DNA of 27,643 bases. It comes from Patescibacteria group bacterium. Its GTDB lineage: Bacteria > Patescibacteriota > Minisyncoccia > Portnoybacterales > GWB1-42-6. The notes below the pieces were generated by a model. The model was given only the letters and a program-made list of their open reading frames with translations. It did no database searches and was not told the origin of the DNA. The stretch spans positions 1-27,643 of the forward strand of contig JAHKAK010000007.1 of assembly GCA_018826025.1 (NCBI GenBank). The letters are read 5' to 3'. Within the stretch, counting starts at the first letter, position 1; each line of letters opens with the position of its first letter. This document shows positions 18,384-26,361 of this stretch, piece by piece. The position numbers and the translations under genes were made by a program.

Positions 18384-18971
18384 ATGCACCTCATAATAGG
18401 ATTAGGCAATCCCGGTTCTGAATATTCCAATACTCGCCATAACTTTGGCTTTTTGGCGTTAAATTATTTTCAGGATTCAACCCCGGGCTTTTCTGCTTGG
18501 CAAGCCAGTGAACAATTTAAAGCGCTCATTAGCGAAGGACAAATTGACGGCCAAAAAATTCTATTGGCCAAACCCCAGACTTTTATGAATAATTCCGGCC
18601 AAGCCGTAAAGCTAATCGCCGACTTTTATAAGATCCCCGCGGCCAATATTTTAGTTTTGCATGACGACCTGGATTTGGCCTTAGGCGAAATCCGGCTAAG
18701 CCAAAACGCTTCGGCCGGCGGGCATAAAGGCATCTCTTCCATAATTGAAAAACTGGGCACGCAGGATTTTGCGCGTTTGAGACTCGGCCTTAAACCTCAA
18801 AACCAAACTTTTTTGGCCAGGATTTTCAAAACTCCAGCGGAAAAATTCGTTTTGAAAAAATTTAGCGAAACGGAAAAAGAGCTCGTCCAGCAAGCTGTGC
18901 AAAAAGCCAAAGAAGCGATTTCGCTAATCCTCAAAGACGGCTTAACCGCCGCGCAAAATAAATTCAATTAA
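18384..18971 (+). CDS. pth: Peptidyl-tRNA hydrolase
   Basis: LIIGLGNPGSEYSNTRHNFG, KPQTFMNNSG, HDDLDL, GGHKGISS. Confidence 0.97.
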   Translation: MHLIIGLGNPGSEYSNTRHNFGFLALNYFQDSTPGFSAWQASEQFKALISEGQIDGQKILLAKPQTFMNNSGQAVKLIADFYKIPAANILVLHDDLDLALGEIRLSQNASAGGHKGISSIIEKLGTQDFARLRLGLKPQNQTFLARIFKTPAEKFVLKKFSETEKELVQQAVQKAKEAISLILKDGLTAAQNKFN

Positions 18972-19196: not shown

Positions 19197-19226
19197 AGAG
19201 GCCAACGCGTTAACGCGTTGGCCTCT
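19197..19226. terminator. Perfect 30-bp palindrome, likely bidirectional terminator
   Basis: AGAGGCCAACGCGTTAACGCGTTGGCCTCT between convergent pth and small membrane genes; T-rich tail on the minus strand. Confidence 0.65.
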
Positions 19227-19231
19227 GAATT

Positions 19232-19513
19232 TTAATCGAGCACGACCGTTGTCGTGCCCTGACACTTCCGGCCTTGCCGCCGAGATTTTTTTCTCGACTG
19301 CCGCCGCCGATAGCATAATTTCAGCTCCTTCCCCGCCTGCGGCGCAGAACATAATGCTCCATAAAACGTGAGCGCTCCGTAACCGCCCAAGAGTATTAGA
19401 ATCGTAAACCGCACAACTCCGAGCGGATGCTCAATAGCCGACGAAGTAAGATAAAAATAAAAAACTGAAATAAAGACCACTGCCAGAACTAACAACAAAA
19501 TAAATTTTTTCAT
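19232..19513 (-). CDS. Small membrane protein, two hydrophobic segments and basic C-terminal tail
   Basis: 93 aa; AAGGAG RBS; ATGA overlap with upstream gene. Confidence 0.65.
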   Translation of the reverse strand: MKKFILLLVLAVVFISVFYFYLTSSAIEHPLGVVRFTILILLGGYGALTFYGALCSAPQAGKELKLCYRRRQSRKKSRRQGRKCQGTTTVVLD

Positions 19514-19734
19514 CTCATGCTCCTTTCTTTGCTGTTGTTGTTTAGCAAATTGCCAATTACTTTCTTTTTTTCACACTTTTTCCGCTCCCGCCAGACCACA
19601 ATCCCGACCGCTACCAGTAGCCAGAAATAATGAGCCAGATGAAACGATTCACCAGGGTCAAGACAAAGAGAAAAGACCCAAATCATCAAAACCCAAGCTA
19701 CGGATAAAACAACCATAAGCCGAACGTAATTCAT
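19510..19734 (-). CDS. Small two-TM membrane protein
   Basis: 74 aa; AAAGGAG RBS upstream; basic cytoplasmic tail. Confidence 0.65.
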   Translation of the reverse strand: MNYVRLMVVLSVAWVLMIWVFSLCLDPGESFHLAHYFWLLVAVGIVVWRERKKCEKKKVIGNLLNNNSKERSMR

Positions 19735-19782
19735 AGTTTTTCTCCTTTCTTTATGTAATTTTTAAAGGGCTAAACTTTTTCC

Positions 19783-19909
19783 GCCCAATATCCTACCTGC
19801 GAGCGTCAAGAGTTAAGATTTCAAAAGAAATCGCCCTTGTCATTAAGTTACTCGCTTAACATTAGGAGGGATTGTTAAGCTTTCACTACTCACAGATAGG
19901 ATACTGGGC
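19783..19909 (-). ncRNA. 127-nt structured leader/sRNA candidate
   Basis: 22-bp closing stem fully paired on the minus strand (4 G.U; these are A.C mismatches on +); inner hairpins GCTTAACA/TGTTAAGC and GATTTC/GAAATC. Confidence 0.6.
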
Positions 19910-19933
19910 AAAAAGACTGTTTTAAAGGATTTT

Positions 19934-20049
19934 TTGACACTGCCTTAACGATATTGTATTATCATTCAAGAATTAGTAATTGTCAATATTTGCTTATTTT
20001 GCACATTTGCACATTATTATAGTATACTCCAAATCAATATGTTTGTCAA
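19934..20049. promoter_or_regulatory. Cluster of sigma70 promoter motifs: two on the minus strand, one divergent on plus
   Basis: Minus TTGACA-17-TATACT (20021-49) and TTGACA-17-GATAAT (19958-86); plus TTGACA-17-TATTAT (19934-62). Confidence 0.6.
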
Positions 20050-20088: not shown

Positions 20089-20126
20089 AAAACAAAAAGA
20101 GCGGTTTGTGCCGCTCTTTTTGTTTT
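20089..20126. terminator. Bidirectional terminator after the subtilase
   Basis: AAAACAAAAAGAGCGG-TTTGTG-CCGCTCTTTTTGTTTT. Confidence 0.8.
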
Positions 20127-26285: not shown

Positions 26286-26361
26286 AAATCTCCCCTACCC
26301 CCTCCTAAAGGAGGGGAACTGATTTTTACCCCCTCCCTTTAGGGAGGGCTGGGGAGGATTT
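26286..26361. repeat. CCCCTACCCCCTCC..GGAGGGCTGGGGAGG family hairpins
   Basis: Two CCCCTCC/GGAGGGG hairpins inside an outer stem. Confidence 0.75.

Follow-up and report, generated by a model that had tools for sequence, protein, structure and literature searches.

What is encoded at positions 19,783 to 19,909 of this window (the whole stretch of 27,643 nucleotides analyzed here), immediately before two short genes for predicted membrane proteins? The earlier note, made from the letters alone, saw there a strand-specific RNA with a three-way junction and an anti-Shine-Dalgarno (anti-SD)-like loop, placed it in the leader of the small membrane genes, and thought of a riboregulator, a riboswitch or a type I toxin-antitoxin-like element. 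Judged from comparative sequence evidence, it is close to certain that the element is a real, strand-specific and independently promoted RNA gene of a new, widely conserved family. It is well supported that its product is a stable, structured small RNA of about 140 nt, and that the family, which is undescribed, has been inherited vertically in many lineages of Patescibacteria (CPR). What the RNA does is the harder part of the question, and the answers proposed below differ in strength.

The fold belongs to the minus strand. The arms at 19909..19888 and 19804..19783 form a helix of 22 bp that is free of mismatches and includes four G.U pairs, and five additional pairs extend it to a closing stem, P1, of 27 bp (19914..19888 with 19804..19778). 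The minus-strand RNA has a minimum free energy (MFE) of -56.7 kcal/mol (z = -9.36), which none of 200 shuffles equaled, whereas the plus strand of the same region reaches only -42.3 kcal/mol and has a disordered centroid. The predicted structure, which occupies 19917..19775 of the window, is a three-way junction of P1 and two hairpin arms, P2 and P3. The inner part of the 5′ strand of P1 (19888..19914, minus strand), AUCCUAUCUGUGAG, is highly conserved; the 3′ strand (19778..19804, minus strand) contains the conserved purine-rich AGGUAGGAU, an SD-like strand located opposite CCUAUCU. P2 (19846..19887, minus strand) is stacked directly on P1 and is composed of a 3-bp helix, an internal loop, an 8-bp helix, and a terminal loop of 11 nt (11–13 nt across homologues); both helices covary. 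According to the folds and to column conservation, the purine-rich internal loop of P2, GAAA/GAGUA, is of a loop-E/sarcin-ricin-like AGUA/GAA type, and this type is conserved across most families. P3 (19807..19839, minus strand) is a variable hairpin with a U-rich loop, in which all 6 pairs show compensatory changes; it is dispensable, being missing from the short forms found in other classes (the P3-less members L097–L102). The family core, as delimited by the covariance-model match (R1, 122 bits, E = 6e-26), spans 143 nt at 19775..19917 of the minus strand, and the model scores 122 bits on the forward strand of the RNA versus 36 on the reverse.

It should be noted that four G.U pairs on one strand are weak evidence when taken alone; the case therefore rests on homologues. 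The matches obtained with blastn in related genomes (71–91% identity) are bounded by the fold borders, their flanks being unalignable, and all homologues adopt an alike fold. Among 51 homologues, 95.5% of pair cells are paired, and in 41 of the 42 pairs both partners have changed. This alignment, which had been fitted to the covariance model, has a covariation score of 0.75; shuffles score 0.30, and sliding the partners yields 0.18 at most. An independent MAFFT/RNAalifold analysis of 16 sequences returned the same helices, with compensation in 28 of 42 pairs. P1 contributes 26 pairs, 25 of them with compensatory changes and 96.6% paired. Its outer half covaries, whereas its inner half keeps CCU.YCU facing AGG.AGG with several nearly fixed G-C pairs; two adjacent inner pairs are C-G in 45 of the 51 sequences each, and the AGGNAGG strand is conserved. 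The excess of G.U/U.G cells over A.C/C.A cells (308 versus 28 in the 51 homologues) identifies the minus strand of the window as the transcribed one. The search for homologues and covariation, a check that the earlier note had itself proposed, thus bears out its structural claims: the 22-bp stem with four G.U pairs, the minus-strand three-way junction, and selection acting on RNA.

The family is broad. A first covariance model, built from 16 sequences, found one copy per genome in 46 of 59 genomes of the window's order. The RNA is present in 32 of 151 genomes of a class sample, and a second model (51 sequences) located it in 22 of 151 genomes of a phylum sample, with other classes included. 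In family f6 it occurs in 27 of 36 genomes. The RNA is single copy in the window's genome; two copies in direct tandem were seen in one genome of family f60 (G181, C88:11001-11282, L057). Named members include Candidatus Portnoybacteria RBG_19FT_COMBO_36_7 and Parcubacteria GW2011_GWB1_42_6. An exact-pattern scan of named genomes gave 46 places, 10 of which match the model, the remainder being chance; nine of these 10 are labeled Patescibacteria, Parcubacteria, Portnoybacteria or Saccharibacteria, and the tenth is labeled Gammaproteobacteria (L148), probably a mislabeled bin. A simple scan for CCUCC in hairpin loops overlooked a known copy of the RNA (in G169) and is for this reason uninformative.

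Comparison with the Rfam covariance models, also suggested in advance, assigned the RNA to no family of Rfam 15: the whole window gave no match at the gathering score, the element none at E <= 10, and the RNA of 20 diverse homologous loci none at E <= 1. Individual candidates were rejected as well. 5S rRNA has the same length and three-way topology, but RF00001 is absent on the element and the genome's 5S gene is found at C82:16857-16973 (86.9 bits). 6S RNA was set aside because the fold lacks the large central bubble and RF00013 gives no match, the Rfam 6S model being an insensitive one that detected 6S in only 5 of 14 control genomes. A divergent SRP RNA was considered, since no SRP RNA (RF00169, RF01854) was found in the window's genome, 26 relatives or 121 class genomes. 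This candidate was rejected because Ffh and FtsY are missing too (the SRP_SPB and SRP54 domains and the DTAGR GTPase motif were not found) and Parcubacteria have already been reported to have lost SRP (Nelson and Stegen 2015, PMC4508563). In the class sample, 100 of 101 genomes yield no detectable SRP RNA, Ffh or FtsY, an observation that agrees with that report and is not new. A peptide encoded on the opposite strand behind the GGAGGG complement of the loop was likewise discarded: it has no conserved start codon, and the stems covary while codons are not kept.

Transcription of the RNA appears to start from a sigma-70-type promoter at 19958..19986 of the minus strand (-35 TTGACA at 19986..19981, 17-nt spacer, -10 GATAAT at 19963..19958), which scores 11 of 12 in a consensus scan and places the putative start site near 19951. 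Of 54 homologous loci, most carry an equivalent TTGACA-N17-TATAAT immediately upstream of the RNA. Between the predicted start and the closing stem lies a 5′ leader (19918..19950, minus strand), recognized in the upstream-flank alignment of family f1. In this family, which includes the window, the leader of 30–45 nt contains the -35 element of a neighbor gene's back-to-back promoter, and the conserved leader motif GUCAAAA is the reverse complement of this -35; in family f6 the predicted start lies at most about 3 nt from the first base of P1. The divergent promoter that had been described as overlapping the -10 of the RNA promoter is indeed present as a promoter-like site on the plus strand (TTGACA-17-TATTAT, 19934..19962), back to back with the RNA promoter, whose -10 occupies 19963..19958 of the minus strand. 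In relatives this divergent promoter faces an mfd-like or a dprA gene. The neighbor usually found upstream has given way to a subtilase gene in the window, so the promoter is an orphan here, with about 150 nt to a bidirectional terminator at 20089-20126. A second promoter-like site (20021-20049, minus strand; TTGACA-17-TATACT, 11 of 12), located 63 nt upstream of the RNA promoter, is unconserved in the homologues read.

At the other end, an intrinsic terminator follows the RNA directly in many loci, of which 16 were read. The RNA of this window lacks such a terminator, and the unit continues through two open reading frames to a bidirectional intrinsic terminator at 19197..19226, a perfect inverted repeat of 15 nt that has a run of T on each strand. 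ORF1 (19510..19734, minus strand; 74 aa, two predicted transmembrane segments) is preceded by the SD sequence AGAAAGGAG at 19750..19742, has no Pfam family, and has a homologue only in a genome of the same genus (G002). ORF2 (19232..19513, minus strand; 93 aa, two predicted transmembrane segments and a basic tail) has an SD-led start that overlaps the stop of ORF1, and its C-terminus resembles the ORF located 3′ of the RNA in L036. SD-led small ORFs, mostly with two transmembrane segments, follow the RNA in 28 of 55 loci, where they belong to unrelated groups.

The conserved neighbor of the RNA is pth, the gene for peptidyl-tRNA hydrolase (18384..18971, plus strand; Pfam PF01195, E = 5.5e-62). 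When adjacency is counted as the next gene of at least 100 aa, pth adjoins the RNA in 64 of 75 loci (44 of 55 in the class and all 20 of the phylum sample), and in 63 of those 64 it is convergent with the RNA. Apart from pth, no protein gene is constantly adjacent. The RNA's 3′ terminus overlaps the end of pth in several loci (gaps of -16 to 0 nt). Five genomes without the RNA have no CCYUCC on the strand where it would be expected in the 700 nt that lie 3′ of pth, and in two of these five relatives pth abuts the mfd-like gene directly. No SD precedes pth in any of the 34 loci with a readable upstream flank, and regulation of pth through its SD was rejected on these grounds.

Another gene of translation, rpsU (bS21), starts at 14254 of the minus strand in the same window. 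Where the RNA and rpsU occur together, the distance between rpsU and the RNA/pth locus is 3–6 kb in nearly every genome; in the two RNA-less genomes checked, rpsU lies 2.5–3 kb from pth. This points to a conserved translation-related neighborhood rather than to a link specific to the RNA. Its leader carries AGAAAGUGAGGUG at 14261-14273, predicted to pair with the 16S tail at -16.9 kcal/mol through 12 bp and one bulge; ordinary SDs in this genome are much weaker. The leader recalls the autoregulation of rpsU described in Bacteroidota.

These data allow three readings that place the function of the locus outside an RNA acting through its loop in trans to be weighed together. That the inverted repeat works as DNA, being a REP-type repeat, a protein operator or a product of chance, is refuted, and we give this reading virtually no credence. 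The genome does contain REP-like GGAGGG/CCCTCC hairpin repeats, each composed of a CCCCTCCT/AGGAGGGG hairpin followed by TTAGGGGAGATTT (at 26286-26308 of the minus strand in the window and at 7 other places in the genome, G000), but the element under study is single copy and has its own promoter, and neither the 308-to-28 asymmetry of G.U over A.C cells nor the compensatory changes in 41 of 42 pairs would be expected of a DNA palindrome. The proposal of a dedicated cis-regulatory leader of the small membrane genes, acting as a riboswitch or in the manner of a type I toxin-antitoxin system, deserves more attention, since the RNA here shares a transcript with ORF1 and ORF2, the loop can pair with their AGGAG, and small SD-led ORFs accompany over half of the class loci. 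It is largely refuted, however, by stand-alone loci: in many of them, 16 having been read, a terminator and convergent pth stand directly 3′ of the RNA, which leaves nothing to regulate. Moreover, the ORFs of different families are non-homologous, so that conservation is much stronger in the RNA than in the genes it was supposed to control, and in the MFE fold the SD lies outside the junction. As a riboswitch or dedicated leader the RNA was therefore rejected. A type I toxin-antitoxin pair was rejected too, given that the RNA lies upstream on the same strand with no overlapping antisense partner and that SD-led ORFs are missing in 27 of 55 loci. What stands of the earlier proposal is that the RNA is upstream of the two ORFs in one transcription unit and that it is an RNA-level element with an anti-SD-like loop; its specificity for these genes, and the riboswitch and toxin-antitoxin readings, fall. 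We consider a dedicated leader very improbable.

Only slightly more credible, and still improbable, is an element tied to pth itself, in which the RNA gene, lying on the opposite strand between pth and the mfd-like gene or dprA, would act as a cis-encoded antisense element or insulator that ends, processes or opposes read-through from pth, as GadY does at gadX-gadW. The near-constant convergence with pth, the overlapping 3′ ends in several loci, and the direct abutment of pth and the mfd-like gene in two of five RNA-less relatives all speak for such a role. Against it, an invariant loop would not be needed for antisense pairing, in which a change on one strand is matched on the other, and the structure has been selected on one strand only; furthermore, terminators or SD-led ORFs often intervene between the RNA and pth, and in this window the distance is about 550 nt and includes the terminator at 19197-19226.

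The feature that any functional reading has to accommodate is the loop of P2. Its core, CCCUCCU (19864..19870, minus strand), lies inside the loop AUCCCUCCUAA at 19872..19862; in the alignment of 51 homologues it is unpaired and reads the same in all 51, the variation being confined to other parts of the molecule. The 16S 3′ tail of this genome is GGAUCACCUCCUUUCU, so the loop of the RNA copies the anti-SD core. The anti-SD-like loop that had been noticed on an inner hairpin is thus real, although its complementarity to the downstream AGGAG sites amounts to only 5 bp. The duplexes predicted between the loop and the SDs of ORF1 and ORF2 have energies of -7.8 and -7.0 kcal/mol, respectively, compared with -13.4 and -13.7 kcal/mol for the 16S tail at the same sites. 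The best genomic complement of the loop is the GGAGGG arm of the REP-like repeat, but this arm is sequestered in the stem of the repeat itself.

SD sites are used sparingly in the genomes concerned. In the window's genome, GGAGG or AGGAG is found at -18..-4 before 69 of 708 long ORFs (15 in a control window), with a sharp positional peak at -12..-9, and the genes so led are largely small or accessory. SD-led ORFs account for 30 of 321 (9.3%) in 19 RNA-positive genomes and 16 of 290 (5.5%) in 16 RNA-negative ones, which is no clear difference in these small samples of related genomes. About half of the 16S genes of Parcubacteria are without CCTCCT (Tsurumaki et al., PMC9297842). Many genomes of the class agree with this, their 16S rRNA ending without CCUCC. 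Among RNA-positive genomes, the 16S 3′ end carries CCUCC in eight, the window's own included, and UCUCC in one; in G081 and in four of four sampled genomes of family f18, the 16S gene is without an anti-SD while the RNA keeps CCCUCCU. The RNA is therefore independent of the ribosomal anti-SD. In two loci of family f18, comparison of the RNA with the 16S tail by eye revealed only a short A/U match, in one of them. The 16S gene of the window's genome (L056, C87:2971-4668, minus strand) has a duplicated GTAACAAGG segment just before helix 45; because it spans 1698 nt versus 1533 positions of the model, it must contain an insertion.

Does the RNA supply the missing anti-SD in trans? The complete f18 genome G169 has well-spaced SDs before 19 of 364 long ORFs and no CCUCC within 1 kb 3′ of its 16S gene. 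G075 also has a 16S gene without an anti-SD, and the RNA was found neither in the 440 of its 651 kb that were searched nor at its pth locus; it nevertheless shows the same SD-like positional peak as G169. In both genomes, GGAGGU peaks at -13..-9 before 5–7% of genes. Trans-acting anti-SD function is thus not needed to explain why SD sites persist where the 16S has lost CCUCC, and it was dropped as the reason for their persistence. Two facts argue against a true role of this kind: the SD sites of the anti-SD-less genomes, reading GGAGGU, fit the canonical ACCUCC and not CCCUCC, and G075 keeps its peak with neither a 16S anti-SD nor the RNA. A trans-anti-SD role is possible, but the data do not require it.

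The most economical reading, in our opinion, is that the CCCUCCU loop pairs with SD sites; we hold it tentatively, at somewhat less than an even chance. The exposed loop would serve as a seed for pairing with AGGAGG(G) SD sites, and the candidate targets would be the roughly 1 in 10 genes that have an SD, mostly small or accessory, with ORF1 and ORF2 among them. Such pairing would lower or time translation, in cis for fused ORFs and in trans for others, and most genes, pth included, would stay untouched because they are SD-less. The 27-bp stem would protect the RNA. It may also be a cut site that frees the RNA from the downstream message: RNase III is encoded in the genome, and the stem may thus be where the RNA is released. 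The invariance of CCCUCCU in 51 of 51 homologues and the SD-led small ORFs 3′ of the RNA in 28 of 55 loci favor SD pairing. Against it stand the local duplexes, which are only 5 bp long at -7 to -8 kcal/mol versus about -13.5 kcal/mol for the 16S tail, and the extension of the SDs as AGAAAGGAG or GGAGGU, which fits the 16S tail rather than CCCUCC. In addition, a simple seed RNA leaves unexplained the conserved G-C pairs of inner P1 and the AGUA/GAA loop, and many lineages manage a similar share of SD-led genes (30 of 321 versus 16 of 290) without the RNA.

Precisely these unexplained features sustain the main rival to SD pairing, namely that the RNA is a mimic bound by a protein or by the ribosome, in which the loop copies the anti-SD and inner P1 (CCUAUCU over AGGUAGG) copies the SD:anti-SD helix. 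The RNA would then act in the form of a ribonucleoprotein, soaking up or storing a factor whose usual site is the 16S 3′ end; candidates are bS21 (the partner of OLE RNA), Era, and other platform or assembly factors. Positions of the helix that could well vary are nearly fixed, including the two adjacent C-G pairs of inner P1 and the AGGNAGG strand; most families conserve the loop-E-like motif, on which proteins often dock; the breadth of the family is typical of RNP RNAs; and CCCUCCU is kept in lineages whose 16S lost the anti-SD. A precedent is offered by P6 of OLE RNA, where bS21 sits on a CCUCCU/AGUAGG duplex (PMC12054373). However, bS21 (Pfam PF01165) shows no association with the RNA (21 of 32 RNA-positive versus 71 of 119 RNA-negative genomes), a co-occurrence that was accordingly rejected. 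Family f6, with the RNA in 27 of its 36 genomes, has bS21 in none of four sampled, and no protein gene other than pth is constantly adjacent. On balance we regard a protein-bound mimic as unlikely, although it remains a serious competitor of SD pairing.

A wider and bolder reading, which we rate as distinctly unlikely, sees in the RNA a riboregulator of housekeeping rank that only CPR bacteria possess and that acts on translation initiation: a copy of the anti-SD that stands by itself, on or beside the 30S subunit. From there it would either provide or gate the recognition of SD sites in a small regulon that depends on them, or it would retain a platform factor. Such a role would explain why CCCUCCU is kept in anti-SD-less lineages (the four sampled f18 genomes and G081). 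Few bacterial non-coding RNAs are conserved above the order level, i.e., tmRNA, RNase P RNA, SRP RNA, 6S RNA and large orphans such as OLE. The present family spans several CPR classes with textbook-quality covariation, and its sole invariant feature copies the anti-Shine-Dalgarno, in carriers that use SD sites for a small minority of genes and some of which have lost the ribosomal anti-SD. Should the RNA prove to control or replace SD recognition, this would bear on how translation initiation is organized in a large and poorly understood branch of bacteria. In any case the family is a clean candidate for a new Rfam entry, and in CPR genomes it usefully marks the pth locus.

It is instructive to place the RNA beside systems that it resembles. 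GadY of E. coli is a cis-encoded small RNA at the 3′ end of gadX, and the present gene likewise converges on a protein gene and occupies the spacer between the 3′ end of that gene and the following one. GadY, however, has neither an invariant loop motif nor a structure conserved across a phylum, and here terminators or ORFs often separate the RNA from pth. A different likeness is to P6 of OLE RNA, an SD:anti-SD mimic whose CCUCCU/AGUAGG duplex is bound by bS21 (Wencker, Lyon and Breaker 2025, PMC12054373): both are structured non-coding RNAs that copy CCUCCU and possess an SD-like purine strand (AGUAGG in OLE, AGGUAGG here). The differences are that CCCUCCU is unpaired in a loop here, the duplex mimic CCUAUCU/AGGUAGG being a second, imperfect copy; that this RNA has 140 nt versus about 600 nt for OLE, whose associated genes are absent here; and that the presence of bS21 does not track the RNA.

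A further likeness, one of functional class and not of homology, is to RsaE/RoxS and the hairpins of S. aureus RNAIII, which are base-pairing small RNAs of Bacillota with C-rich loops. They share with the present RNA independent transcription, an unpaired C/U-rich loop complementary to the SD, and presumed translational repression; the promoter of its own and, in many loci though not in this window, a terminator directly 3′ are what one expects of a trans-acting RNA of this kind. Unlike them, the RNA described here is without an Rfam match and has a 27-bp closing stem and a three-way junction. It spans classes of a phylum rather than one order, its pairing is predicted, and its host genomes use SDs for only about 5–10% of genes. 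The element in this window bears every mark of the pth-adjacent family with an anti-SD loop: a model match of 122 bits, the 27-bp P1, the CCCUCCU loop, and convergent pth.
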